Positions 29,762-57,141 of a DNA stretch of 64,000 bases are shown one piece after another (the stretch's first letter is position 1; every line of letters starts with the position of its first letter). A program made the translations under genes and the position numbers. Source of the DNA: Caldisericia bacterium (GTDB lineage Bacteria; Caldisericota; Caldisericia; JAAYUI01). The notes under the pieces were generated by a model that was given only the letters and a program-made list of their open reading frames with translations, searched no databases and was not told where the DNA came from. The stretch is taken from positions 448,001 to 512,000 of the forward strand of contig OY771555.1 in the NCBI GenBank assembly GCA_963674785.1, read 5' to 3'.

Positions 29762-29790
29762 TTGCAATTATTTAACATACAAGCTAGAAT
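29762..29790 (+). promoter_or_regulatory. Sigma70-type promoter
   Basis: TTGCAA-17-TAGAAT upstream of RBS GGAGG. Confidence 0.5.
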
Positions 29791-29824
29791 ACACTACATC
29801 GTTGTACCTTGGAGGTATATGAAC

Positions 29825-32800
29825 ATGAAAAACGTGATTAAGCTTACGCTTGTTCTTGCCCTAGCTATTTCGGCTTTGTGGTTTGTGCCAGCTGGACAAC
29901 CCGAAAATGTTTCCGCATATTTAGGATGGGTTGGTGCAGATGGATCACCATATTTCGGTGGAACATTACCACAGCCATTTGACATAAATGTAAGTAACGA
30001 TGGTGGAATCTCTGTATCAGGCTTCGATAGAGACCTCGTGCTTGATGCATACAATGATCCACATATTGCATGGTTTAGCAATAGCGCCTCAGGTTCTCAA
30101 GAACTATTTGTCTATTACGTGCATTGGGACGATACACAGCAAACATGGCTCTGTGCAAACGGTGACGATTATGCTGTTACCCCAGGAAGTGCAAGAGTCG
30201 GCACAAGAACCGCTGATGTTGACGATGATTACGCATCACTCTCACTCGCACTCGACAGCAACAGAAGACCACATCTGGCAATAAGTGGTGTTGATAATGG
30301 TGACGGAGATATTGTTTATGTTCGCTGGAATGGAACAGCATGGGTTTCCCTTGATGGAGTAGACTATCTCACAAATCCAGATGCAGCAAACGTAACTGAC
30401 TCAGCTAATTTCACTGGCGGTGGTCAGCCAGTCATGCAGGGAATTGATGCGTTCCCATCACTTGCTCTTGATGCTGAGAACAACCCAAATCTTGCCTGGC
30501 AGCATGATTCAGACGATAACGCCGTAAATCGCAGCTGGGAGATTTATTTCATTCACACAGTACAGAACCAGACAATCTGGAGATCAAGTGGTGCAAACGG
30601 TTTCCAGTTCTGGCTAAAAAGTCATTATGACAAATGCCGTGTGAGCAATAATGATGGCGACTCGATTTACCCATCAATGGTCTTAAGTTTCAATGACCCA
30701 CTTGATACAGCAGGGCTTGGAATGCCACATATCGCTTGGCAGGACGATACCTGGAATGGAAATGAAGAAATTGCTTATCTTCTCTGGCACGGAGACGAAA
30801 ATGGTGGAAATACCTCACCGTGGTATTGTGTTGATGGAAGTGCTTATGACCCATCAATCGCAGTTAACCCTGTAAACGTCAGCAGGAATACAGGAGACTC
30901 CAATAATCCATCACTAGTTGTTGATTCATCAAATAGTCCACTTATTGCATGGGAAGATGAAACAAACGCTGTGAATGGAAATATGGATATTTTCTTCTCC
31001 AGATGGAGCACAACCAACACAGATTGGATTTGTGCTGACGGAACACTCTACAATCCAGTAGCAAATCCAAACCCAGTTAATGTTACCAGAAATGTTGGAG
31101 ATTCAGTTGAGGTCTCACTTGATATGGACTCATCAGAGGAACCACATATTGTATGGTGTGATGATAGCTACACCAGCACATATTCAGATTTCAATTTATT
31201 CTACATGGGTTGGGATGGTTCAAATTGGCTCTATGCTGACACAACCTCCTATGATGAGACAGAGGATCCAAACCATTGTAATGTCAGTGAAAATGATTAT
31301 TTCTCATGGGCACCTTGTCTTGTAATTGATAGTACTGATGTGCCACATATTGCCTGGACAGATGAAACCGGAGCAGGACTTCCTGGTCCATTACCGTTTA
31401 GCACACCAACTGGTGGCGAGTACGAAACCCAGGATTGGAATGATGACTACAGCGGATGGAGCACGAGCGAAGTTTACTATGTTACATGGGAAAACTCATT
31501 TGACGGCGTACTCAGCCTCGAAAAATCTGTTGATTCAGATAATGACGGACTGTTTGATGATGACGGAGAGCTTGTTGTTTCAAATGGAACTCTGACATAT
31601 CAGGTTGATTATGAATATGTTTCTGGCAATGACCCAGTTCTTGACGGATATATCTATGACTCAGTCCCAGATGGTACCTATTACATTGGTGGATCGATGT
31701 CCCCGATATATGAGTACTCAACAGACAACGGAGTAACATGGATTCCAGGTGAAGCACCAGACGGAAGCCCAGGTGGCACAATGTTTAGGTGGGCACTTGA
31801 TACAAATAATGGCTGGAGTCCACTCACAATCCTTTTCTCAGTAAGAATAATCAACCCACCACTGGCATGGGTTTTCTGCAACACTGCGTCTCTTGACCAT
31901 CTCCAGATTGAAGACCCAATGGAATCAAACACTGTCTGCAACACCCTCGATTATCAATTCACAGGCACATTTGAAGTATCAAAAAATGTTGATGTTGACG
32001 GTGATGGATTCTATGAAGATAGTGGATATCCAGTTGAACGTGGTGAAGCTCTTTGTTATGAACTGGAGTGGAGCTTTGATAACCCAAATAATGACCCTCT
32101 TGCAGCTGCTTATCTTTATGATGTAATCCCTGAAAACACAACATATCTTGCAGGAGCAATACCAGAATATAATCTTTCATACTCCGTAGATGGTGGGACA
32201 ACCTGGCTTTCAGGCGAACCAACAGTTGGAACAGCCTCTGGAACAATCCTCAGATGGGGACCACTGCCAAGTGGATGGGTCGGTGCAGATGACTCACAGT
32301 ATATTGGTTCAATGGTAAGTCAGCCAATGGATATTGATGTGAGTAGATCTCTTACCAACTCTTATACTGATGAGGACAGATTCCTTGCACTTGATTCAAA
32401 CAACTACCCACACATTGCTTGGAGAGAGAGACTTCCAACAGACGAAGACATCTATTATGTAAGATGGGATGGCTCAAACTGGGTAACAGCAAACGGTAGT
32501 GTTTATGACCCATTAACAGAAAATGCAAACATAAGCAGAACAACTGCAGAATCAAGAAGTCCATCATTTGCCCTCGATTCAAATGACCTCCCACATATTT
32601 CGTGGAGAGAGCTTGACCCACAGGTAACCGGCGGCGGATACGACATTGTATACATCAAGTTTGATGGAACAAACTGGGTTTGTGCGGATGGAACTGTATA
32701 TGACCCAACAACTACCAATTCAAATGTATCCGATAATGATGGATCATCACAGCACCCATCACTTGTACTTGATTCAAATGATAACCCATGTATCGCATGG

Positions 32801-34486
32801 TATGATTGGGATCCACCAACCATAAATGGCAATGAATACGACATTTATTTTGTAAGACATGATGGAACAGACTGGGTTAATGCAGATGGTACAAACTACG
32901 CTGCAAACCACGCCGGAGCAAATGTCAGTTATAACCCAGGAATCTCAGCAATGGTAAGACTTGCTGTTGATAATAATGATAATCCACATCTTGTGTGGCA
33001 CGATACAACAACCGCAATAACCGGTGGAGACTTCGATGTTCTCTATGTCAGATGGGATGTAAATCAGTGGGAATGTGCAAATGGAAGCCCATACACTGCC
33101 ACGGAATCAGATGCAAATGTCAGCAACAATAACGGAGGATCGAATAACCATCCAGCAATTGAGATTGACAGCAACAACCTTCCACATATCGCCTGGTTTG
33201 ATAATGAATCAACTGCAGTAAACGGTCTTGAAGATATATATTACGTACATTGGGCAGGAAATGCCTGGCTTGCAGCAGATGGGACTCCATACTCAACAGA
33301 CCACGCATCAGCAAACGTAAGCAGAAATGATGGTAGATCTTACAGACCTTCATTGGCACTCGACAGCAATGATATACCTCATCTTGCCTGGTATGACGAA
33401 ACTGCATCGATTATTTTTGGTACAGGATCAGATGTTTTATATGTAAGCTGGAATGGAACAAATTGGGTTTCAGCAAGTGGCGATAACTACAGCCCAGCAA
33501 ATTCAACCTCAAACGTCAGTGTTGATGACGGTGGCACACTGCTCACATGTCTTACACTCGACTCATACGATGAACCCCATCTTGTCTGGGAAGAGTTTTC
33601 AAATGGTTCTTATCAAGTTACATACGTTCACTGGGCACCAGTTGAAAGAACATTCAATTTCTGTGTTGAGGTTGCTGATTTTGATTGCTGGGATAATGAT
33701 GGTGAACCTATCATCCGTTCAATAACAAACAGAGCATACTTCACCCACGCATTTGGTACAGCTCCACAGTACACAAATTATGTGATAAACCCCGTAAAAT
33801 TCTGCCCAGTCCCCGACGAAGAAAAAGCAGAACTTGCAATCGAGAAAACAGCTCAGAAACTTCAATATAAACTCGGTGATGTAGCGGTATTTAATGTAAC
33901 CGTCTCAAACACTGGAAATATTGATGTTACCGATGTAGCACTTTCGGATGTCTTCCCAAGAGAACTTGTTTATCTCTCATCAAAACCTGAAGGCTCATCA
34001 AGCATAAACGGCTGGAAATACAACATCGGAACTCTAAGAGCCGGCGAAAGCAGACACTTCCAGTTCAGATTCAGAATTGACCCAGCAATCAAACTCGGTG
34101 AATCCCCACTCGTCATTGAAAACATCGCCACCGTCACTTGCAACGAGCTTGACGCATTGACAGATTCTGCAGTTATAACTGTTTACAAAAATATCGTAAC
34201 AGAGCAAATCAATCTTGTTGTTGTTTGGACTGGAATCGACATTGAGACCTCACAGGGTGAATCAGGTAGCGAGATCACACTCGACATGGTTGCATCAGGC
34301 GGATCATCACCATATGAAATCTATATCGATTGGGGCAACGAAGATGAAACCGTTATCTCAGAGGTTGTAAGAGAGGCCTCAACAACATACACATACAACT
34401 CATCTGGAGAATATAAAGTTGTTATCAAACTCGTGGATAGGTTTGGAAAAACCAAATATGTCGAAAGGGTTCTTTATATCGATTAA
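29825..34486 (+). CDS. Large secreted surface protein: two LDSxxPHIAW propeller regions, DUF11-type Ig domains, C-terminal PKD-like domain
   Basis: Signal peptide; about 14 PHIAW/YVRWDG.NW.CADG repeats; KSVD..LTYQ..D.VP.GT.Y; EKTA..VSNTG..LSDVFPREL; YEIYIDWG...GEYKV. Confidence 0.88.
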   Translation: MKNVIKLTLVLALAISALWFVPAGQPENVSAYLGWVGADGSPYFGGTLPQPFDINVSNDGGISVSGFDRDLVLDAYNDPHIAWFSNSASGSQELFVYYVHWDDTQQTWLCANGDDYAVTPGSARVGTRTADVDDDYASLSLALDSNRRPHLAISGVDNGDGDIVYVRWNGTAWVSLDGVDYLTNPDAANVTDSANFTGGGQPVMQGIDAFPSLALDAENNPNLAWQHDSDDNAVNRSWEIYFIHTVQNQTIWRSSGANGFQFWLKSHYDKCRVSNNDGDSIYPSMVLSFNDPLDTAGLGMPHIAWQDDTWNGNEEIAYLLWHGDENGGNTSPWYCVDGSAYDPSIAVNPVNVSRNTGDSNNPSLVVDSSNSPLIAWEDETNAVNGNMDIFFSRWSTTNTDWICADGTLYNPVANPNPVNVTRNVGDSVEVSLDMDSSEEPHIVWCDDSYTSTYSDFNLFYMGWDGSNWLYADTTSYDETEDPNHCNVSENDYFSWAPCLVIDSTDVPHIAWTDETGAGLPGPLPFSTPTGGEYETQDWNDDYSGWSTSEVYYVTWENSFDGVLSLEKSVDSDNDGLFDDDGELVVSNGTLTYQVDYEYVSGNDPVLDGYIYDSVPDGTYYIGGSMSPIYEYSTDNGVTWIPGEAPDGSPGGTMFRWALDTNNGWSPLTILFSVRIINPPLAWVFCNTASLDHLQIEDPMESNTVCNTLDYQFTGTFEVSKNVDVDGDGFYEDSGYPVERGEALCYELEWSFDNPNNDPLAAAYLYDVIPENTTYLAGAIPEYNLSYSVDGGTTWLSGEPTVGTASGTILRWGPLPSGWVGADDSQYIGSMVSQPMDIDVSRSLTNSYTDEDRFLALDSNNYPHIAWRERLPTDEDIYYVRWDGSNWVTANGSVYDPLTENANISRTTAESRSPSFALDSNDLPHISWRELDPQVTGGGYDIVYIKFDGTNWVCADGTVYDPTTTNSNVSDNDGSSQHPSLVLDSNDNPCIAWYDWDPPTINGNEYDIYFVRHDGTDWVNADGTNYAANHAGANVSYNPGISAMVRLAVDNNDNPHLVWHDTTTAITGGDFDVLYVRWDVNQWECANGSPYTATESDANVSNNNGGSNNHPAIEIDSNNLPHIAWFDNESTAVNGLEDIYYVHWAGNAWLAADGTPYSTDHASANVSRNDGRSYRPSLALDSNDIPHLAWYDETASIIFGTGSDVLYVSWNGTNWVSASGDNYSPANSTSNVSVDDGGTLLTCLTLDSYDEPHLVWEEFSNGSYQVTYVHWAPVERTFNFCVEVADFDCWDNDGEPIIRSITNRAYFTHAFGTAPQYTNYVINPVKFCPVPDEEKAELAIEKTAQKLQYKLGDVAVFNVTVSNTGNIDVTDVALSDVFPRELVYLSSKPEGSSSINGWKYNIGTLRAGESRHFQFRFRIDPAIKLGESPLVIENIATVTCNELDALTDSAVITVYKNIVTEQINLVVVWTGIDIETSQGESGSEITLDMVASGGSSPYEIYIDWGNEDETVISEVVREASTTYTYNSSGEYKVVIKLVDRFGKTKYVERVLYID

Positions 34487-34690: not shown

Positions 34691-37279
34691 ATGAAAAATC
34701 TCACAAGATTTATTTTGATTTCGGCACTTATAATATAAACCCTGTGGTTTGCACCAAGTGGTGCACCGGAAAGCGTTTCTGCGTATACCGGCTGGGTTGG
34801 TGCTGCCGGTTCTATCTATGATGGAAGCACGATAAATCAGCCTTTCGATATCAATGTTAGTAGTATTTATTCACAAGATTCATCAATGGTGCTTGATGGT
34901 AATGGATATCCACATATTACATGGGAGGTCGATACAATCGTCAACTCTGAAATCTACTATGTTCACTGGAATGGCACAAACTGGGAATGTGCAAATGGTG
35001 ATGATTACAGCACAAACCAAGCAAGTGCGAATGTGAGCAATAATGCTGGACCTTCATGGAGACCGTCCCTAGCACTCGATGATAATGGATATCCACATAT
35101 TGCATGGAATGATTATACACCCGGAAACGCTGAAGTTCTGTATGTTCATTGGAATGGAACAAACTGGCAGTGTGCAAATGGTGATGATTACAGTGTTAAT
35201 CCTGGAAGTGCGAATGTGAGCGGCGTCAATAGTGGTTCAGGCTATCTATCCCTTGCAGTTGACAGCAGTGGATATCCACATATTGCATGGCGTAGTAATG
35301 TTTCTGGAAGACTTGAGATCCTGTATGTTCACTGGAACGGAACAAACTGGCAGTGTGCAAATGGTGATGATTACAGTGTTAACCCCGCAAGTGCAAATGT
35401 GAGTAATAATATCGGGTATTCAGAACACCCGTCTATTATACTCGATGACAATGGATATCCGCATATTGCATGGATCCAAAACACCTCTGGAAATTACGAA
35501 ACCTACTATGTTCATTGGAATGGTTCAAACTGGGAGTGTGCAAATGGTAATAATTACAGTGTTAATCCAGCAAGTGCGAATGTGAGCGGCGTCAATAGTG
35601 GTTCAGGCTATCTATCCCTTGCAGTTGACAGCAGTGGATATCCACATATTGCATGGCGTAGTAATGTTTCTGGAAGACTTGAGATCCTGTATGTTCACTG
35701 GAACGGAACAAACTGGCAGTGTGCAAATGGTGATGATTACAGTGTTAATCCCGCAAGCGCAAATGTTAGCATCAATAGCGTGTATTCAGAAAATCCATCC
35801 CTGACACTCGATGATAATGGATATCCACATATTGTATGGGATGATACTTCACTCGGGAATTATGAAATCTTGTTTGTCCATTGGAATGGTGGGAGTTGGG
35901 AGTGCGGAAATGGTCATGATTACAGTGTTAATCCTGCAAGTGCAAATGTGAGTAATAGTAGTGGGAGCTCGTACAATCCATCTCTAGAACTTGATGGTAA
36001 TGGATATGCTCATATTGTATGGCGTGATTTCACACCAGGAAGCTCTGAAATCTATTACTTACATTGGAACAGCTTTGAGTCTACTTTTTCTCTTTTAAAA
36101 TCAGTTGATGTGAATAATGATGGGGTGTATTCTGATGACCACACAGTTATTCAGAATGGTGATGTGCTTACATATCAGATCAATCTTGATAAACAATCAG
36201 GTTTTGATCCAGTTTTTGATGGATATGTCTATGACATGATTCCATCTGGGACAGTGTATATTTCTGGTTCTGCGATGCCACTCTCACAGCTTTCCTATTC
36301 TGATGATTTTGGTACATCATGGACACCTGGAGAGCCACCAGGTACTGCCCCTGCCAGTACATTGCTCAGGTGGGATGTAATTGACATTCCTCCACTGACA
36401 AGCGGAAATCTTATAAACGCATTCTTTTCAGTAACTGTTGTGGATTCAACCATCATGGGCATCAACAATACTTCATATTTTAATCACAGAGATAGCGAAC
36501 TAACCGGATTCCTTGCATCAAACATCATTTCAAATACAACAGTGGAATGTTCTGGCTGTCCAGACTGTCCTGAATGCCCAGAGTGTCCCGATGACCCAGA
36601 CGACCCACCCACAAACTCAGCAAATCTTGAGGTAACCAAAACAGCAGGTTCAATGCACTACTACAAGAATGATCTGTTTACATTCAAAGCAAAGGTTGGA
36701 AATGTTGGTGACTTAGAGGCAACAAATGTGATGCTTACTGACAACTTCCCAAGAGAGATGGAGATTGTAGGAAGTAGACCAGAAGGTGTCATCTCAAATG
36801 GAAAATGGACATACAATGTCGGAAGACTAAACCCTGGTGAGGGCAGACTTTTTGACTTCATCTTCAGACTCAAAGGTGGTGTGAATCTTGGCAGTGAGCC
36901 ACTCTCACTTACAAATATCATCACAGCAACATCAGATGAAACCGATAAAGCAACTGACAACGCATCGATAGTCATCAGTAGTAAAACAGGAAGTAGTCCT
37001 CTTTCACTTGATGTCAAATGGGATGGAATTGATGTCAAAACCTCAACTGGAAAAGCTGGTGAACTCATAACCCTAGCACTTACCCCAGATGGTGGAAGTT
37101 CCCCGTATGAAATAGTTGTTGATTGGGGAGATGGGGAAAAGACATTTGCATCGGAAGTAACAAATTCAAAAGAAGTTTTCCACAAGTACACATCATCAGG
37201 CAAATACAAAGTCATCATCAAACTTACAGACAACTATGGAAAAACAAAGTATGTAGAGAGGGTTCTTTATATCGATTAA
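34691..37279 (+). pseudogene. Paralog of 29825-34486 with in-frame TAA (34736-34738) in the signal peptide
   Basis: RBS GGAG then MKNLTRFILISALII*TLWFAPSGAPESVSAYTGWVG, which aligns to MKNVIKLTLVLALAISALWFVPAGQPENVSAYLGWVG; in frame with ORF 34886-37279. Confidence 0.85.
35206..35748 (+). repeat. Intragenic duplication, 366-bp period
   Basis: 35206-35382 is identical to 35572-35748. Confidence 0.85.
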
Positions 37280-37375
37280 TCAGATGAACCTCAATATCGC
37301 TTAAACGCGTTTTTTACGCTTTTAGGAATATAACACCCAGGGAATGCACACTCCCCTGGGTGTTTTTTATTGGTC
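37238..37375 (+). repeat. 138-bp direct repeat copy 2 with bidirectional terminator
   Basis: See 34445-34582; overlaps the stop of the convergent gene at 37367. Confidence 0.9.
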
Positions 37376-39214
37376 AATTTTTTTCAAAGCCTCAAGGGAA
37401 AAAGGAAGCTTAGCCCCACCAACCTCAAGAAAACCATCACCCACACAAACTCCAGGCATTTTCATCACATCAAAACTCAAGTTTGCTGGGGTATTTTCAG
37501 GATACCTGTCTTTTATGTTGTAGTTTATCTCAAGGCCATCAAACCGGCAGAAAAGATTTGATTCAGTTTTCTTGGTTTCAAATTCAATCCGTCCACTCCA
37601 ATTTGCAATATCAGATTTTTTATCAACACCAGAAAAGACCTCAAGAGCAAACCCACAAAAAACGTCATCAACCTTTATTTGACGTGGGTCAAAACTCATT
37701 AGTTCAAAGTCAATGATATTGCCCGGAAAAGGAAGGTTTTTCTCAATATGAATTTTTGGTACCATCTGGTCAGAAATAAAAAAAGGCTTCACAAAAACTG
37801 AGGTCTCCCCATCAGAAACCGAAAAAGAGTTTTCGTGTGTTTTTATCTCAAGGTGTTTGGGGATGATGAAAGTCTGGGCTATCCGGTTTACGTCTTTTGA
37901 GGTATCACCTGAAAAAAGAATATGAGAAAGCTGAATGAGTCTCTTCCCATCATGATTTGTGTAAACTGGAATCCTCAGATGATTGTGACCCGAACCACCA
38001 CCCAGACTTGGAAGAAGCCAAGGTTTTTTATTAACTGAAATCACAGGTACAAATTGAGAAGAATTAGCATCTTCAGAAGGAAAATCAATCACAACATTTC
38101 TATCCTGCGATCCATAACTTCTGCCTGATGTTCCAATCGAAAAATCTCCATCGAAAAAAGTCTGCCTGACCTGCCACGGATCAAATCCCCATCTTGATTC
38201 AAATAAAAACGATTCAGGAAGATTATCAACAAATTCTGAAAGCCAGGAAGGCAACTCATGGTCATAATAAAATGGGGTAATATCACCAACATCTGAAATC
38301 AAGTCTTTTGACATGTATCCATTTGTAAGCCTCACAAGTTCTTTAATTGTTCCACCAGAACCAGAGAAAACATTGTAGCTTCGGGAGTTAGCACCAGATA
38401 AGCTTTTAGTAGATGGATTATAATGGATCAACAAATCAAGAAGGATGAGGTCTACCCAATTTTTTGCGAGGGTTTTCATATCGGAGTCAGATGAATACTT
38501 CTCAATCAGATATAGAGCTTGAAGGTCAACTGCCTGATAGGTTGGTGAATTGAACTCATAAATCCCATTTGAAAGAGAATATTTGATGAAAACATCAAAA
38601 GCGACTTTTGCAAAAAACTGTCCAACAGGATTATTGGAAATCTCAGACGAAAGAAGAAGATCACACACAAAAAGTAGATGATAGTTAGTGTGAGTGAGTG
38701 TCGACTGGTAATCACTAAACCATGTCCTGATAAGTCCTTTTGAGCATGTTTGTAGAGACTCCAAAAGAAGCTCTTTTGTTTCAGGTTCAAGTCTACATGC
38801 AAGTTCAAAATATATCTGAAAAATTGTTATCGGCACAAACATATCCCACTCAAGCCCCGACATAGAATCCAGAAGCTCGGGATAATACCACGCCCCATAA
38901 TAAGGACTTTCAGGATCTTTGACCTGAGAACTTAGATATTTTCTAAGAATCATGTTTCCAAGTTCCTGATGACCTTTATTTTCTGATGAGAGAAGACAAA
39001 GAGAAAATCTGAATTCTGATCTGCAGGTTGGGATGTTGCCAACCGACTTGAATCTCAGTTCATCAAAATCATAGATGTCTTTTTCCTGTACAGCATCAAT
39101 GATGATTAGTGCAGCCTGCTCAACAGAAAGTTCTTCCGAACCAGCACCTGAAGTAATCACAGAGCAGAAAAAGACAAAAGCAAGAAGAATTGAAATGATT
39201 CTTTTTCTTATCAC
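37367..39214 (-). CDS. Secreted protein, possible alpha/alpha-toroid polysaccharide-lyase-like enzyme
   Basis: Signal peptide; helical N-half with HTNYHL and GIYEFNSPTY motifs, beta-rich C-half. Confidence 0.6.
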   Translation of the reverse strand: MIRKRIISILLAFVFFCSVITSGAGSEELSVEQAALIIIDAVQEKDIYDFDELRFKSVGNIPTCRSEFRFSLCLLSSENKGHQELGNMILRKYLSSQVKDPESPYYGAWYYPELLDSMSGLEWDMFVPITIFQIYFELACRLEPETKELLLESLQTCSKGLIRTWFSDYQSTLTHTNYHLLFVCDLLLSSEISNNPVGQFFAKVAFDVFIKYSLSNGIYEFNSPTYQAVDLQALYLIEKYSSDSDMKTLAKNWVDLILLDLLIHYNPSTKSLSGANSRSYNVFSGSGGTIKELVRLTNGYMSKDLISDVGDITPFYYDHELPSWLSEFVDNLPESFLFESRWGFDPWQVRQTFFDGDFSIGTSGRSYGSQDRNVVIDFPSEDANSSQFVPVISVNKKPWLLPSLGGGSGHNHLRIPVYTNHDGKRLIQLSHILFSGDTSKDVNRIAQTFIIPKHLEIKTHENSFSVSDGETSVFVKPFFISDQMVPKIHIEKNLPFPGNIIDFELMSFDPRQIKVDDVFCGFALEVFSGVDKKSDIANWSGRIEFETKKTESNLFCRFDGLEINYNIKDRYPENTPANLSFDVMKMPGVCVGDGFLEVGGAKLPFSLEALKKIDQ

Positions 39215-39271
39215 ATTCTAAATTCTATCAATATCCATTTGAGAAATCCAGAGAATTAAACAACCCACCCC

Positions 39272-39299
39272 TTGACCTTAAGGAAATCTATCGCATAAT
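39272..39299 (+). promoter_or_regulatory. Promoter of tRNA-Tyr
   Basis: TTGACC-16-CATAAT, 14 nt upstream of the tRNA. Confidence 0.55.
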
Positions 39300-39313
39300 A
39301 TCCGAACTGTCGT

Positions 39314-39399
39314 GGGTAGTTAGCGAAGTGGTCAAACGCGGCAGACTGTAAATCTGTTGACATAAGTCTTCGGAGGTTCGAATCCTTCACTGCCCACCA
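39314..39399 (+). tRNA. tRNA-Tyr (GTA)
   Basis: Acceptor GGGTAGT/ACTGCCC, anticodon arm GCAGA-CTGTAAA-TCTGT, long variable arm, GGAGG-TTCGAAT-CCTTC, encoded ACCA. Confidence 0.97.
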
Positions 39400-39897
39400 T
39401 TCCCATCCTAAAAATAGTCATTAACTCCTTATACCCAGGCATTTATCAAATTGGTGCAAACTCGACATCCTTTCAATCTGCCACCATAAGTCTTAAGGTT
39501 GGAAAGATATTCACTGCCCACCATCTCAAAACATCCCATCATTCTCGACGTATCTGTGTTTCCAGGTATTTATCGAGTAGCCAAAACTCGGCTGCCTGAA
39601 CATCTGCCACCATAAGTCTTGAAGCTAAGGACTTTTCACTGCCCACCATTCCCATCCTAAAAATAGTCATTAACTCCTTATACCCAGGCATTTATCAAAT
39701 TGCTACAAACTCGACATCCTTTCAATCTGCCACCATAAGTCTTAAGGTTGGAAAGATATTCACTGCCCACCATCTCAAAATATCCCATCATTCTTGACGT
39801 GTCTGTGTTTCCAGGTATTTATCGAGTAGTCAAAACTCAGCTGCCTGAACATCTGCCACCATAAGTCTTGAAGCTAAGGACTTTTCACTGCCCACCA
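39400..39897 (+). repeat. Tandem array of four degenerate tRNA-Tyr-derived units (A-B-A-B)
   Basis: Units end in TTCACTGCCCACCA at 39523, 39648, 39772 and 39897 (124/125-bp period; 249-bp dimer nearly identical). Confidence 0.92.
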
Positions 39898-39958
39898 TCT
39901 CAAAATTCCTTAGCCATTCATTCCAAATTCTTGTGCTGGGCATATCGTGATTGACCTT

Positions 39959-40335
39959 AACCCTCCCTGATGCCTACGGCATCTTCCCTCCCTGAAAGGG
40001 AGGGTTTTTAAAACTCGTCATTCTTGGCTACTCTCCCACCTCATGCCGTGCTTGACCGTGAATCTCACCACCCTTGTCATTCCGTGCTTGACACGGAATC
40101 CAGGGTTAGTTTTGAATCACAGATTATTTTGTGATGATTCTTGATGTCGGAAAAATCATTTCACCAGACAAAACAAATACGCTTTTTTATACCCTAGACC
40201 CCGGGTCTTCACCCAGGATGACGGAAAGAGGGTGCAGTGTGAAAGGAAAGTACATGGTTTACAGTATTATCAGTGAAAGGCTCAACCCATTCCTCCCTGG
40301 TGACTTCGTCACCGTCCTTCACTGATAGGAAGGAC
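39959..40335. repeat. REP/REPIN-like palindrome cluster
   Basis: CCCTCCC..GGGAGGG element at 39959-40005; GTCATTCCGTGCTTGACACGGAATCCAGGGT at 40076-40106 with an inverted partner at 40191-40224; degenerate double hairpin at about 40290-40335. Confidence 0.75.
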
Positions 40336-40470
40336 ATTTTAACCCTTCATTCCAAACTCTTGTATTGAGCACAAAAAAACTATTTATATGCAACAGAACT
40401 TTTGGAATTATATTCTCATATCCAATTTTGAGATGTTCGATCAAGCGATGGGCTATCTCAGTTTATTGCC

Positions 40471-40501
40471 AAAAAAATCCCGTACTCCAAAGCGTACGGG
40501 A
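40471..40501 (-). terminator. Intrinsic terminator
   Basis: TCCCGTAC/GTACGGGA stem next to an A7 run (U-tail on the minus strand). Confidence 0.7.
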
Positions 40502-40536
40502 CAGATTTTTTTTTACCAATTCATGTTGAAAAGTTG

Positions 40537-41049
40537 TTAAGCTTTCCACTCGTATTCAAAAACAGTTCTGCCATGTATTGCCATATTTTCAACCAAGTCG
40601 GCTCTTGTTAGAAGTTTGTTATAGAATCTAATAAATCCTTCACCGACTCCTATATGAAAACCTTCATCAAGAGGACTTCTTGTTACTACTCTAATAAAAC
40701 CATTTTGAAGGGTTTCAATTTTATACTCATCAACATCAGCACCCTTATTATTTTCCTTGTACATCTCTGTGATGATTGTAAACGCCTTGACGACATATTC
40801 TGCTTTTGTAAGTGCTCCGGTCATCCCATCGAGCGTTTTTGCAATCTGTTTTCCAACCAGTCTCGGACCAATCTGCCCAACTTTTTGTCTTAATGCTGCC
40901 ATGTAATTGTTAAACTCTTTATGTGGTACCCAACTGTTTTCAAGCATTGTGAAATCGATACTAGCATTACTCCTACAAAAATCTCTATTTGTTGGTGCAA
41001 CAAGCGAATCCGCCATCATCAAAAGCTCACCCTTTATATATGCGTCCAT
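40537..41049 (-). CDS. V4R/H-NOX-like small ligand-binding protein, paralog 1
   Basis: RBS AGGAGG; MDAYIKGE..WVPHKEFN..GPRLVGKQI..Y.ENNKG..SPLDEGFHIGVGEGFIRFY..FEYEW. Confidence 0.7.
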   Translation of the reverse strand: MDAYIKGELLMMADSLVAPTNRDFCRSNASIDFTMLENSWVPHKEFNNYMAALRQKVGQIGPRLVGKQIAKTLDGMTGALTKAEYVVKAFTIITEMYKENNKGADVDEYKIETLQNGFIRVVTRSPLDEGFHIGVGEGFIRFYNKLLTRADLVENMAIHGRTVFEYEWKA

Positions 41050-41247
41050 TCTGACCTCCTTATACCTTAAATTTAACAAATAATTCATTTGAATGCAAAT
41101 CTGGATTCTGATTAAAACTAAATGTAAATTTTTATATAAAATTAGATTTCTTTCTCCAGTTTCAGATCATATTAAGAATACTTATTAAAAAATTATCTAA
41201 CACCGAATTGATTAATTATCTCTTTGATTGACTCTTTAATTATCTAT

Positions 41248-41275
41248 AAAAAAAGGGGTATCTCAAGGATACCCC
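41248..41275 (-). terminator. Intrinsic terminator
   Basis: GGGGTATC/GATACCCC stem preceded by an A-run. Confidence 0.7.
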
Positions 41276-41353
41276 CAGAGCGTATGAACGAACAAAAAAA
41301 ACAAGCAACCGCAGTGTTTTCTAGTTAATGCTCAATTCTTTTTTGTGGTAAAA

Positions 41354-41878
41354 CTAGCTTGCTAGGCCATCTTTCCAGGAAACCTCAAAAACTGACTTTC
41401 CATCTTTTGCATATGTTTGGGTGATTTCAGCTTTTGTGATCACCTTCTTATAAAACCTAAGTAGACCCTCAAGAAGCCCAAGGTGAAATCTTTCATTTAT
41501 GTTGCCGGTAAAAGTGAGTTTCATGAATCCATCATTTAGTTCATCGATAATAAACTCACCGGAGTCATTCCCCTTGTTATTTTCTTTGTAAAACTGTGGG
41601 ATAGGCTTGAAGCCAACTTTTGGATCATTTGACTCAGCAAGCTCGGGCACATTTTGAGAAAGTGCAACACCTGCTTGTCTTCCGGCAATCTGTGGTCCGA
41701 TGTTCCCAGCTTTTTTAGTTAGTGCATCAAAATACTTATTGAATTCCTGATGGGATACCCATTTGCCAACGAGATCATTAAAATCAACATTTGTATTAGA
41801 CCTGCAAAATGACTTGTTCTGTGTGCCAACGACCGAATCAACCATCAAGAATATCTCGCCTCTTATGTATGCATCCAT
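41354..41878 (-). CDS. V4R/H-NOX-like small protein, paralog 2
   Basis: MDAYIRGE..WVSHQEFN..FYKENNKG..FHLGLLEGLLRFY..FEVSW. Confidence 0.7.
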   Translation of the reverse strand: MDAYIRGEIFLMVDSVVGTQNKSFCRSNTNVDFNDLVGKWVSHQEFNKYFDALTKKAGNIGPQIAGRQAGVALSQNVPELAESNDPKVGFKPIPQFYKENNKGNDSGEFIIDELNDGFMKLTFTGNINERFHLGLLEGLLRFYKKVITKAEITQTYAKDGKSVFEVSWKDGLAS

Positions 41879-42077
41879 ATCTCCTCCTTACATAAAAAAA
41901 TTTACCAACTGTTAACATTAAATACAAGTCAGTTTTGATGTAGATAAGGTTATCTCTTTGAGATGATACACATTTCTTTTATGAAAAAATAACATTTCAA
42001 AGGTATAATCTCAAAATTCTCAAAACTGTAAACAAATGGTATCTTTTTGAAGATATATCTAAATATGAAAAACCTAC

Positions 42078-43076
42078 TTAGCAAATTCTTGGGAGAAGTT
42101 CACCTGCAGGTGGTTCGAGAATCCTTGATCCACCAATCTCTGTGATGAGATATGTTTTTCTTTTGTGGTCTTTTGTCGCCAGTCCTATAATCGATGATTT
42201 TGTTCCATGCTCGGTACTTGAAAGCATCAAAACAACTGCATCAGCTATCTCAGGTTTGACAGCAAGAAGCACTCTTCCCTCGCAAGCAAGTGTGAGAGGG
42301 TCTATTCCAAGTGCAGCGCAGATTCCAGAAACATCAGCATCAACAGGAATTCTCTCCTCATGTATTTCAACACCGACATCAGATGAATGGGAGAGTTCTG
42401 AGATTATCGCAGCAAGTCCACCGCGCGTGACATCGCGACAGGTTTTTATGTCCTCGCCAAATTTATCAAAAATTGGAACAAGCATCGAAGAAAGATTGGC
42501 AACATCAGAAACCAGTTCCGATGAGAAACCAAGCTCTTCGCGTTTCGCCATGATAGCTGCACCATGTCTTCCGATACTTCCCGATACAATAAAAAAGTCT
42601 CCTGGCTCAATCCTCGAAGCTGATGGTTTTGCATTTATAAGCTGTGCACCAACTCCGGTTGTAGTAATAAAAATTCCATCGGCACTACCACGTTCTACAA
42701 CCTTGGTATCACCGGTAACAATGGGTACATCACCGGCGGTTTCTTTTATTGAGTATAAAATTTGTTCAAGATCGGTCTTTGAGAAACCCTCTTCAACAAT
42801 CAGCGAGAGTGAGAGTGCAAGTGGTCTTGCACCCATGACTGACAAATCATTTATTGTCCCACACACAGCAAGTTTACCAATATCTCCACCTGGGAAAAAA
42901 ATCGGTTTAACAACAAATCCATCAGTTGTAAATGCAAGTTTTTCATGAGGAAATTTGAGAATTGCAGAATCCTCAAGAGAATTGAGAATCGGATTCCCCA
43001 AAATCGCAACAATCGAATCAATCAGATTTCGGGAGTCGATTCCTCCACCGCCGTGTGAAAGTTTTATTTTATCCAC
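42078..43076 (-). CDS. hypE: Hydrogenase maturation carbamoyl dehydratase HypE
   Basis: LSHGGGG, FTTDGFVVKPIFFPGGDIGKLAVCGTINDL, TGDTKVV, RDVTRGG, C-terminal LPRIC. Confidence 0.96.
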   Translation of the reverse strand: MDKIKLSHGGGGIDSRNLIDSIVAILGNPILNSLEDSAILKFPHEKLAFTTDGFVVKPIFFPGGDIGKLAVCGTINDLSVMGARPLALSLSLIVEEGFSKTDLEQILYSIKETAGDVPIVTGDTKVVERGSADGIFITTTGVGAQLINAKPSASRIEPGDFFIVSGSIGRHGAAIMAKREELGFSSELVSDVANLSSMLVPIFDKFGEDIKTCRDVTRGGLAAIISELSHSSDVGVEIHEERIPVDADVSGICAALGIDPLTLACEGRVLLAVKPEIADAVVLMLSSTEHGTKSSIIGLATKDHKRKTYLITEIGGSRILEPPAGELLPRIC

Positions 43077-55406: not shown

Positions 55407-55569
55407 CCCTCCCTCATCAGGGAGGGATGTCACCAAAGGTGACAGGGAGGGTTAATCCCAATCACCTTCATTCCCGCTTTCCCCAACGTCATTCCCGGCT
55501 TGACCGGGAATCTTCACCCTCCATCATTCCCACTCTCTCACACGTCATTCCCGCGCAGGCGGGAATCCA
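55407..55569 (+). repeat. REP-like cluster left of the SIR2-like gene
   Basis: CCCTCCC..GGGAGGG double-hairpin element at 55407-55453; CGTCATTCCCGGCTTGACCGGGAATC at 55487-55512; GTCATTCCCGCGCAGGCGGGAATCCA at 55544-55569. Confidence 0.85.
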
Positions 55570-55726
55570 TGTGTTTTCTGATGCAAACAAAATCTTCGAA
55601 TCTACATATTTTCATATGTAAAACTTTATAATTTAGAGTTGATAATAACTTAGGATTTGACGTTGTGAGCCTTCCTTATATCATTTCAATATAATTTGAA
55701 TCCAGTATTGGGAGAAAAAAGGCTTT

Positions 55727-56821
55727 ATGAGTCAAGAATATATAGAAGTTAGCTCAGAGGAATTATGGAATGAAGTTTTTCCAAAAGCAAGTATAGAAAA
55801 CAAAATAAGGGTAGATCGAGATGGTAAACCAAAAACTGCAATTCTTCTCGGTGCAGGATTTACAAACAAATATATTCCAAACACTTGGGGATATGACAAC
55901 ATATGGGATTATGCCAGCAGATTTGCTTTTGATAATGATGAGAAAGACATTCTAGAGTTAATGGACAATTATTTTAAAGAAATGGGGAACAAGAATTTTG
56001 AAAGGTTGATTGCATTATCAAATGAATGTACAGATTTTCTCAATTTAGCAAAAAAACCATTCAAGATTTTTCTAAATAGCAAACAAATTCTGAGAATCAA
56101 AGAAGTTTTCATAAATGCTATGCACAATGCTGGAATAGACTCAGAAAAAAGACTATGCAATAACACCCCAGCTAGAGAGATAGGGAGCTTTTTAACAAGA
56201 TTCGACCAAGTTTTTACAACCAACTACGATCCATTAGTTTATTGGTCAATAATGAAGCACACAAATTCAGACGAAAATCGATATACTATTGGAGATTTTT
56301 TTCATCGTGGGGAGTATGCCCCAGAAAATCCAAACTTTGTTAATGCAGTTTTAGAAAGGGATAAAACTCTCGTCTCGTATCTTCATGGAGCTTTTTTTAA
56401 TACAGACACCGATTCAATATATAAAATATCAACATCTCCTGATTCAGATGAATCCCTAATGAAGTTAGCAAAGAAGCGATATGGCATTCATAATATAAAA
56501 CCATTGATTGTTACAGACGGTAGTTCTGAACAAAAGATTCTTGCAATTGATCACAATAGGTATCTGAGTGATTCATTGAGCAGACTTAGAAGATTTGACT
56601 TAGATTATCTTTGCACAATAGGTTTTGGGTTTACACCACCAGACAAACATATTATTGACTCAATAAGGCATAATAGACCAAGTAAAATTGCTATAGGCTA
56701 CTATGGCGAAATAGGTAATAATATGAAGAAATTCATCAAAGATATAATGCAATGGAATCCAAAGTGTGAAATTATGGTTTTTAAAACAAATCAGCTTCCT
56801 TGTGATGAAACACCCCCGTAG
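55727..56821 (+). CDS. SIR2-like (DUF4917-type) protein, putative defence NADase
   Basis: ILLGAGF, VFTTNYD.LVYW, YLHGA, PLIVTDGSSEQK..I..NRYL, IGFGF..DKHI; AT-rich. Confidence 0.8.
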   Translation: MSQEYIEVSSEELWNEVFPKASIENKIRVDRDGKPKTAILLGAGFTNKYIPNTWGYDNIWDYASRFAFDNDEKDILELMDNYFKEMGNKNFERLIALSNECTDFLNLAKKPFKIFLNSKQILRIKEVFINAMHNAGIDSEKRLCNNTPAREIGSFLTRFDQVFTTNYDPLVYWSIMKHTNSDENRYTIGDFFHRGEYAPENPNFVNAVLERDKTLVSYLHGAFFNTDTDSIYKISTSPDSDESLMKLAKKRYGIHNIKPLIVTDGSSEQKILAIDHNRYLSDSLSRLRRFDLDYLCTIGFGFTPPDKHIIDSIRHNRPSKIAIGYYGEIGNNMKKFIKDIMQWNPKCEIMVFKTNQLPCDETPP

Positions 56822-56847
56822 GGAGAACATTCATTTCTTAGGCTTCC

Positions 56848-57141
56848 TGGATTCCCGCCTGCGCGGGAATGACAGAGAGAAGATGCTGTCATAAGTGCGG
56901 AATGAAGGTGTTGCTAGCCAGGTAAACTTTCTTCGCTTATGTCTTTCCAGCGATGCTTTGACAACTCAGCAACCAGCTGGAAACCAAGGTACATAAAAGC
57001 GTGTTTTTTTATCTGGTCGGATTGCTTGACCTAGAACAAAACTCTTTACGAAATAGTTAATGTTACAATTCTAACCCTGGATTCCCGGTCGTAGCCGGGA
57101 ATGACGGGGTGGGGGATTCCGGGTCAAGCCCGGAATGACGG
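56848..57141 (-). repeat. REP-like cluster right of the SIR2-like gene, including a REPIN-like unit at 56960-57107
   Basis: 56848-56873 is the exact reverse complement of 55544-55569; further GGATTCC...GGAATGAC copies at 57078-57105 and 57114-57139. Confidence 0.85.

Follow-up and report, generated by a model that had tools for sequence, protein, structure and literature searches.

A tandem array of decayed tRNA-Tyr copies behind the tRNA-Tyr gene of a Caldisericia bacterium

Repeats linked to tRNA genes have been known in Escherichia coli since 1978 and, to our knowledge, are still without an agreed origin or function. The same two questions are raised by a locus in a Caldisericia bacterium (phylum Caldisericota), in which a tRNA-Tyr gene is followed by four repeated units that resemble the gene itself: how did the array arise, and is it kept for a function? 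The window studied here is the 64,000-nucleotide (nt) stretch at positions 448,001 to 512,000 of contig OY771555.1 (assembly GCA_963674785.1), with the gene at 39314-39399 and the array at 39400-39897. The array is probably a set of tRNA-linked repeats (TLRs) that came from tandem duplication of the gene and its trailer, was homogenised by unequal crossing-over and gene conversion, and is likely to be transcribed as a long, weakly structured trailer. It represents no new kind of system. The units appear young enough to reveal their origin as tandem copies of the tRNA gene itself, and they make the class more general by placing it in a deep-branching phylum.

The tRNA-Tyr gene and its four units

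ARAGORN calls a single tRNA in the whole window, the plus-strand tRNA-Tyr(GTA) at 39314-39399 with CCA encoded, which the Rfam tRNA model RF00005 scores at 61.2 bits in a search of positions 37000-42000. From its 3' end onward (39386-39898), Tandem Repeats Finder detects a period of 249 with 2.1 copies and 97% matches, and a sub-period of 124/126 at ∼70%. The four units lie on the strand of the gene and alternate between two types. Unit A1 (39400-39523) is a 37-nt spacer followed by an 87-nt decayed copy of the whole length of tRNA-Tyr. Unit B1 (39524-39648) is a 40-nt spacer, opening with the genus-typical trailer TCTCAAAA, followed by an 85-nt copy. Units A2 (39649-39772) and B2 (39773-39897) repeat this pair, with differences from A1 at two of 124 positions and from B1 at five of 125 positions (96-98% identity). 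The units are thus 124 or 125 bp long, with spacers of 37-40 nt and 85-87 nt aligned to positions 2-86 of the tRNA.

The alignment of each unit with tRNA-Tyr scores 63-67, whereas shuffled tRNA reaches at most 29 against these flanks. An initial annotation, made by a model from the sequence alone, had described a tRNA followed by four units of 124/125 bp that align along the whole tRNA-Tyr, and this description is confirmed in every particular. The annotated destruction of the anticodon stem and TpsiC loop is also seen in the alignment, where neither the anticodon stem nor the T arm is intact and the anticodon GTA has become TTC in the A units and GAA in the B units. Five of the seven acceptor-stem pairs could still form. 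ARAGORN calls no unit, the Rfam tRNA model has no call inside the array at E<=1, and both recover only the gene at 39314-39399. The sense strand of the array holds no open reading frame (ORF) of at least 50 aa; a minus-strand ORF of 50 aa (39539-39691) sits in its repeat DNA.

Two blocks are invariant across the four units, as the initial annotation had claimed for both the A and B types. The first is a 19-nt block that covers the 3' strand of the anticodon stem and an altered variable arm (39476-39494, with copies at 39602-39620, 39725-39743 and 39851-39869). The second is a 14-nt block equal to the tRNA's own 3' end (39386-39399) and located at 39510-39523, 39635-39648, 39759-39772 and 39884-39897. 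In the host genome, a single contig of 2.23 Mb, the 19-mer occurs four times, always in the array, and the 14-mer five times, in the tRNA and the four units. A and B are identical at 84 of 129 aligned columns (65%), among them the 19-nt and 14-nt runs. When the match vector is shuffled 100,000 times, the probability of a longest run of at least 19 is 0.006 and that of both runs 1e-4, so the divergence is uneven between blocks, as had also been claimed. The seven differences within the A1/A2 and B1/B2 pairs all fall outside the blocks; this has a chance of ∼0.1 and hence carries little weight.

The 19-nt block departs from the tRNA by four substitutions in the variable arm (T>C, T>C, G>A and A>C). 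These changes give rise to what was initially read as a meaningful second CTGCCACCA end-like motif in each unit. Such a reading loses its force, since the change fits a general drift of the arrays toward C and away from G, and the same stretch is C-rich in all three tRNA-Leu units of the host genome and in unit 2 of the tRNA-Tyr array of a sister species (G003).

The copy number was assessed from contigs with depths, rather than raw reads, of four sequencing runs. X1 is the probable source sample (it holds 0.86 of the words) and hence not independent evidence; X3, X4 and X5 come from three other studies, X5 being an RNA library, and parts of the stretch left uncovered in these three are not read as absence. 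Ten further runs (X6-X15) contain 0.06 or less of the words and carry no information on the array. Short-read assemblers break at repeats: the X1 Logan contigs inside the array are pieces of 119-146 nt, and in the sister species G003 the tRNA-Tyr array is interrupted by a contig end. An assembly artefact, in which the A-B dimer was wrongly collapsed or expanded at a locus with a single A-B pair, is nevertheless extremely improbable. In X1 the shared A-type contig (39386-39531) has a depth of 25, about double that of the flanks (12.4-13.2), and the contigs specific to B1 (39502-39620) and B2 (39751-39869) are each at single depth (12.4 and 13.2, respectively), as expected of two A copies, one B1 and one B2. 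In X3, a 220-nt contig runs B-A-B with four differences, two of which give the second B the letters of B1. These depths and the X3 contig support the A-B duplication, for which the initial annotation had considered an artefact of assembly as a possibility.

The other two runs display different arrangements. In a contig of X4, an A unit runs directly into the downstream flank, with 125 positions skipped (23 letters fit both sides), and a 154-nt contig of X5 passes from an A unit into an A spacer, an A-A junction at which 15 letters fit both sides. The joints of both arrangements fall within the 14-nt block. The array is therefore real, and its length and unit order vary among natural strains.

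Copies behind other tRNA genes and the origin of the array

The tRNA-Tyr locus is not isolated. Pseudo-copies located downstream on the same strand are present at six of the 47 tRNA genes of the host genome, amounting to 13 units with one to four per locus. In addition to the four Tyr units, these comprise three units at Leu(CAA) with a period of ∼77 nt (genome 672131-672447), two at Thr(CGT) (512713-512984, 713 nt past the end of the window), two at Ala(TGC) (1824135-1824421), one at Gly(CCC) (1382888-1383131) and one at Ser(GGA) (324247-324415). A census of tails, defined as the last 16 nt of each tRNA with at most two mismatches within 700 nt downstream, reveals 12 same-strand recurrences at five tRNA genes; across the 47 genes there are none downstream on the opposite strand and none upstream on either strand. 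As a cross-control, the tails were compared with the trailers of other tRNA genes, which gave seven matches in 2162 pairs.

The prevalence of such copies varies across the genus. The surroundings of every Rfam-tRNA match were surveyed in three sister species, G001, G002 and G003. In G003, four of 45 intact-scanned tRNA genes have copies, namely Ala(TGC) (x2), Pro(CGG), Ser(GCT) and Ser(GGA), and two further units with a period of ∼165 nt stand behind tRNA-Tyr in an array split by a contig end, which brings the total to five of 47. G002 has copies at two of 47 tRNA genes, Ala(TGC) and Gly(CCC), and G001 at none of 47. The tRNA-Tyr array is thus missing in two of the three sister species. For the two other genera of the order, selected loci were examined; G009 has one partial tRNA-Tyr copy, and there are none at the Leu(CAA), Thr(CGT), Gly(CCC) and Ala(TGC) loci surveyed. 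Taken by locus, Gly(CCC) is positive in two of ten testable cases and Ala(TGC) in three of nine. All copies found lie downstream and on the same strand. The absence of any array from G001 indicates that the arrays are dispensable, in at least this one sister species, and the initial claim that the Tyr units represent something other than neutral decay is accordingly not shown.

Several features are consistent with DNA-level copying of the gene together with its trailer. In G002 the genus-typical trailer TCTCA(A/G)AA stands directly after the tRNA, and in the host genome it stands after A1, A2 and the last unit, a placement predicted by duplication of gene plus trailer. In G009, CCA is encoded neither in the tRNA gene nor in the pseudo-copy, which points to DNA rather than mature tRNA as the template. 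The divergence of the Tyr units (65% identity between types, 96-98% within them) records duplications of nested ages. The pseudo-tRNA-Gly(CCC) units of the host genome and G002 share derived features, namely an 8-10-nt insertion in the D loop, AACTACA for AGCTCA, and AAAG in place of the 5' strand of the T stem, and each carries the anticodon-stem letters of the tRNA of its own species. This combination argues for common descent followed by exchange with the gene, i.e. concerted evolution.

The proposed history of the Tyr array would begin with a tandem duplication of the tRNA-Tyr gene and ∼38 nt of trailer. The downstream copy would have lost its tRNA function and then split into the A and B types, and the A-B pair would recently have been duplicated once more, leaving two to five differences per unit. 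By acting at the identical blocks, unequal crossing-over and gene conversion would keep the units partly alike and change their number and order.

Two cases elsewhere resemble early stages of such a history. Behind tRNA-Ala(TGC) on contig C6 of G003 (locus L274), two mutually identical units, spacer included, copy positions 35-76, with the T loop (TTCGAAT to TTAAAAAT) as their sole difference from the gene, as in a very young array. A metagenome contig of an unrelated lineage (L131, positions 243-447) holds two full-length tandem tRNA-Tyr genes 40 nt apart, which may correspond to the intact starting state that this array once had. In G010, a 69%-complete genome, tRNA-Tyr is present on both C41 (4174-4259) and C38 (2034-2119), as a duplication or by redundancy of the assembly.

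A broader search adds few relatives of the Tyr units. The two-block pattern has no match in metagenome contigs, and in genome contigs it matches only a contig of the sister genome; among the first 24 loci, blastn-short finds no match to either unit type beyond the window's own genome. A 25-mer covering the T arm and acceptor end is common to tRNA-Tyr of many lineages and returned 120 loci, 40 of them with flanks of at most 300 nt; being shared across lineages, this tag does not test the conservation of the array. Extra copies at these loci are limited to L131, with its full second tRNA-Tyr, and L059 (score 38), and the close relative L044 has none. Weak matches to the T arm only (scores 27-34), beside tRNA-Tyr at six loci of other families, were taken as neighbouring tRNA genes. 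Synteny at the Tyr locus extends only to the upstream gene (37367-39214), which is common to G001. The downstream genes are shared with none of G001, G002, G003 and G009, and there is thus no orthologous trailer for comparison.

The 3' parts of tRNA genes are classic targets of integrases, and integrases of the anticodon-loop type duplicate the span from the anticodon loop to the tRNA 3' end. Integrated elements leave partial tRNA duplications as attL and attR sites, and gene-less remnants can be stacked by accretion, as in elements of the CIME type. The units could accordingly be what site-specific integration has left behind at the tRNA-Tyr gene. Alternatively, they could serve incoming integrases as a bank of spare att sites, the option raised in the initial annotation. 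The resemblance lies in repeated tRNA 3' parts downstream of the gene: most units in the other arrays of the genus begin at the anticodon stem or loop (positions 27-37) and extend to the 3' end, and gene order downstream of tRNA-Tyr differs between species. The Tyr units, in contrast, run the full length of the tRNA and contain the 5' acceptor strand and the D arm, neither of which an attP copy needs. Units of 124/125 bp with spacers of 37-40 nt leave no room for an element, and neither cargo nor recombinase is present; the recent A-B duplication and the strain variants look like plain products of unequal crossover. No integrase or recombinase was found among the 14 ORFs scanned at 25964-49955. 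In the whole genome, the tyrosine recombinase family PF00589 has a single match, at 1885391 and ∼1.4 Mb from the array, and the serine recombinase families PF07508 and PF00239 have none, so that a bank of att sites would have no enzyme to serve it. Integrated elements may have been present here in the past, and yet an origin or use of the array as att sites is very unlikely.

The TLRs of E. coli provide a closer parallel. They are described as 22 units at ten loci, with one to five per locus, each unit having an 18-19-bp 3' end identical to that of the upstream tRNA or rRNA (PMC8144298, citing Egan and Landy 1978 and Rudd 1999). The 178-bp repeats behind tyrT and tyrV hold rttR and tpr, and an early functional claim for the tyrT unit was withdrawn; in the account of the same source, no function is known except for three rRNA-linked members that bind Hfq and CsrA in vitro (PMC8144298). 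A check of the K-12 sequence reveals that the 19-nt tyrV tail is repeated three times behind that gene, with a period of 178 nt, and a further time between tyrT and tyrV, which makes the comparison with the tyrT repeats, drawn in the initial annotation, an apt one. In both organisms the units lie directly downstream of a tRNA gene, on its strand and head to tail, each ends in a copy of the tRNA 3' end with CCA, and the units are spread in small numbers over several loci of the genome (22 at ten loci in E. coli, 13 at six here).

Differences are also seen. Here the unit as a whole can be recognised as a decayed tRNA copy; in E. coli, similarity to the tRNA is confined to the 19-nt tail. The stretch of identity at the 3' end is 14 nt rather than 18-19, and over 16 bp the Tyr units have two mismatches; the 16-nt tails of the Leu, Gly and Thr arrays of the host genome have zero to two. 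The period is 124/125 bp rather than 178, no sense-strand ORF of at least 50 aa is contained in the array, and the strongly G-poor composition (G 0.14, C 0.28) departs from that of the K-12 repeats (G 0.26, C 0.31), in a host of another phylum. Rfam models the enterobacterial tRNA-linked repeat units as the RtT RNA family (RF00391, gathering score 45 bits). At E<=1 this model matches neither the genome nor positions 37000-42000, with the control positive in E. coli only, and the array is not a member of the RtT family.

Directional decay, probable transcription and possible function

The decay of the units is directional. Across the six arrays of the host genome, in counts to which Tyr contributes about doubly given the near-duplicate A1/A2 and B1/B2 pairs, the units retain 125 of 188 G (0.66), 175 of 196 C (0.89), 144 of 174 A (0.83) and 166 of 195 T (0.85) of their tRNAs. 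Among the substitutions, G>T (32) is the most frequent, followed by G>A (24), A>C (21) and T>C (19); no more than seven changes produce a G. The trend of G loss and C gain is visible in each multi-unit array of this genome. Identity by region was scored for 21 units of 13 arrays in four genomes, omitting the Tyr array of G003, the gene of which is cut by a contig end, and counting two Ser(GGA) units with an internal deletion as zero from the T arm onward. It rises from the T-stem 5' strand (0.57), T loop (0.69), anticodon-stem 5' strand (0.72) and T-stem 3' strand (0.76) to the tail (0.81), acceptor 3' strand (0.86) and anticodon-stem 3' strand (0.87). The conserved 3' end and the destroyed T arm can thus be understood as one process, because G-rich 5' stem strands go and pyrimidine-rich 3' strands stay. 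In the proposed history, the sense strand would have lost G and gained C; the loss would preferentially erase the former, and the latter, with the CCA end, would look conserved.

The outcome is a skewed composition. The arrays of the host genome have G of 0.09-0.18 and C of 0.24-0.39, with Leu(CAA) at the extreme of both (G 0.09, C 0.39). Ranked by sense-strand C minus G among 200-nt windows of the genome, the Tyr array falls in the top 1%, Thr in the top 1.6% and Leu in the most extreme 0.001%; the Ala, Ser and Gly arrays are unremarkable (6-19%). Other tRNA trailers are not G-poor (mean G 0.175 and C 0.187 for 36 genes). The genus offers an age series of almost intact copies, copies changed in the T loop only and G-depleted arrays. 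This series suggests a route to tRNA-linked repeats, by duplication and then directional loss of G-rich stem strands with survival of the 3' tail, and yields a testable explanation for the apparent conservation of this tail.

The context of the array is compatible with transcription from the tRNA promoter. A promoter-like site at 39272-39299 on the plus strand (TTGACC, 16 nt, CATAAT; 10 of 12 consensus positions) ends 15 nt before the tRNA. Promoter and terminator calls are consensus matches, and the 1.6-kb region contains four promoter-like sites, compared with 3.5 expected from shuffles; the site gains credibility from its position just before the tRNA. In the consensus scan, no terminator-like site separates the tRNA from the array, in agreement with the initial annotation, nor does the array itself contain one. 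The first one after the tRNA is an intrinsic-terminator-like hairpin of eight pairs, six of them G-C, with a T run on the plus strand (39986-40014, the hairpin itself at 39986-40004). The array starts at the base after CCA and on the same strand, from which we infer a single transcription unit with the tRNA. In X5, the 154-nt contig crosses a unit boundary and the neighbouring genes are at zero cover, although carry-over of DNA could account for this. Co-transcription, as claimed at the outset, is plausible on these grounds, and the tRNA promoter would probably yield a trailer of ∼600 nt that ends at the hairpin.

Little structure is expected in such a transcript. Folded singly, no unit forms a cloverleaf, and the minimum-energy structures of A and B differ. 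The z-scores against shuffles are -0.01 for A1, -0.17 for A2, -1.72 for B1 and +0.16 for B2; the RNAalifold consensus of the four units has six pairs and -1.95 kcal/mol, and the putative 710-nt transcript as a whole gives z = -1.45. The A and B units share no fold and are not tRNAs.

These results bear on the proposal that the co-transcribed array is cut after each CCA into small RNAs that mimic tRNA ends and act in trans, as regulators or as decoys that would engage anticodon nucleases, TyrRS or enzymes of CCA addition and repair. Each unit does retain the 14-nt tRNA 3' end with CCA and the potential for five of seven acceptor pairs, its blocks are conserved beyond chance, no terminator-like site intervenes, and the RNA-library contig covers an A unit at a locus with flanking genes at zero cover. 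Moreover, the three rRNA-linked TLRs of E. coli that bind Hfq and CsrA are described as processed just after the repeated tail (PMC8144298). The tRNA mimicry postulated in the initial annotation, however, finds no support in the folds, since no unit forms a cloverleaf or scores as a tRNA and A and B have no structure in common. With the anticodon lost, the units are no substrate for an anticodon nuclease or for anticodon reading by TyrRS. The X5 contig crosses a unit boundary and hence shows no processing, as it represents either unprocessed RNA or DNA. Arrays come and go between strains and species, with copy number and order varying among strains, no array behind tRNA-Tyr in two of three sister species and none at all in G001. 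Decoys or other trans-acting RNAs are thus unlikely, and the idea of decoy small RNAs is left unsupported.

A role in cis would demand less of the units. The array could be selected as a G-poor, C-rich Rho-loading site or processing platform for termination or 3' maturation of tRNA-Tyr. Its rut-type composition and weak structure, the C-minus-G skew of the Tyr and Leu arrays, and the gain of C against the A+T bias of the genome would suit such a role, and Rho is encoded in the genome. A Rho-dependent site lies within the tyrT repeats of E. coli. Thirteen tRNA transcripts of E. coli are taken to end Rho-dependently in unstructured trailers (PMC2190699); such trailers of tRNA operons, presumably Rho-terminated, are removed by PNPase and RNase II (PMC2190699). 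On this basis we suggest that ridding a co-transcribed pseudo-tRNA of structure may aid maturation of the functional tRNA. A need for this role is rendered doubtful by the good intrinsic-terminator-like hairpin that follows the array anyway, by young units of relatives that are not yet G-poor, by the trailers of most tRNA genes of the host genome, which are not C-rich, and by G001, which copes without any array. Selection of the Tyr array as a cis-acting trailer is accordingly unlikely. If the array is a set of decayed duplicates, as we favour, it would have no trans-acting role and would at most form a C-rich trailer that 3' exonucleases or Rho handle so that the tRNA matures.

Not all observations sit well with duplication and decay. 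The two invariant blocks exceed what uniform decay gives (P ∼1e-4), and conversion from the tRNA cannot maintain the 19-nt block, as this block differs from the tRNA; selection may act on it. The gain of C runs counter to the mutation pressure expected at 61% A+T (G and C each at 0.196 in this genome) and hints at selection on some target. The pseudo-tRNA-Gly(CCC) has persisted since the split of two species with apparently very diverged neighbouring proteins: a neighbour gene is ∼55% identical by tblastx between the host genome and G001, and the spacers around the pseudo-Gly are barely alignable. Its survival could reflect purifying selection. The array statistics are thin, as the Tyr array contains just two independent unit types, and the case for transcription consists of a consensus promoter and terminator and one RNA-library contig that may be DNA.

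The gain of C, the 19-nt block and the survival of the pseudo-Gly keep a functional reading of some kind alive, which we regard, for all such readings together, as a minor possibility. One of these would have the arrays of the genus selectively kept as G-poor, C-rich RNA modules that retain the tRNA 3' end, either as platforms for Rho and 3' exonucleases or as sponges for enzymes that read tRNA 3' ends. The three observations allow for such modules, which are improbable to about the same degree as the tRNA-end mimics. Were they real, the whole-length homology seen here would show that enterobacterial tRNA-linked repeats arose as decayed tandem tRNA copies.

Neighbouring repeats and genes

The array is adjoined, without being part of it, by a mosaic of interspersed short repeats at 39935-40353. 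The mosaic comprises 45 BLAST pieces that mostly match the genome at 0.5-1.08 Mb, and its X1 depth is raised to 38-56, compared with 12-13 in the flanks. The module of the mosaic that holds the terminator-like hairpin described above (CCCTCCC..GGGAGGG and a T run) recurs ∼10 times in the genome.

The mosaic also holds, at 40076-40100, a member of a hairpin repeat family of the form GTCATTCC-stem-loop-stem-GGAATC, often followed by CAGGG; further members lie at ∼55488-57139 of the window (genome 503488-505139). The stems vary by paired changes, such as CCCGCG..GCGGG, CCCACG..GTGGG and CCCGTG..ACGGG. A loose pattern finds 50 copies in the host genome (33 plus, 17 minus), clustered at ∼0.3-1.08 Mb, and no match to the REP-associated (PF01797, Y1) transposase is present in the whole genome. 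A narrow pattern finds eight copies in the host genome, 20 in G001, 28 in G003 and none in G002 or genus g2. Within 1.2 kb downstream of tRNA genes in the host genome, the hairpins occur only behind Ser(GGA), Tyr, Thr(CGT), Leu(CAA) and Gly(CCC), all of them array-bearing, and on the strand of the tRNA. A link between arrays and hairpins fails across genomes: by the narrow pattern, G001 has its 20 hairpins and no arrays, and G002 has arrays and no hairpin.

Beyond the mosaic, two adjacent paralogous ORFs on the minus strand (40537-41088 and 41354-41878; 183 and 174 aa) have no Pfam match and adjoin hypE (42078-43076). Upstream of the tRNA locus, two plus-strand ORFs of 1574 aa (29762-34486) and 797 aa (34886-37279) contain DUF11 domains, and the second has a strongly repetitive N-terminal half with recurring YVHWNGTNWQCANGDDYS.

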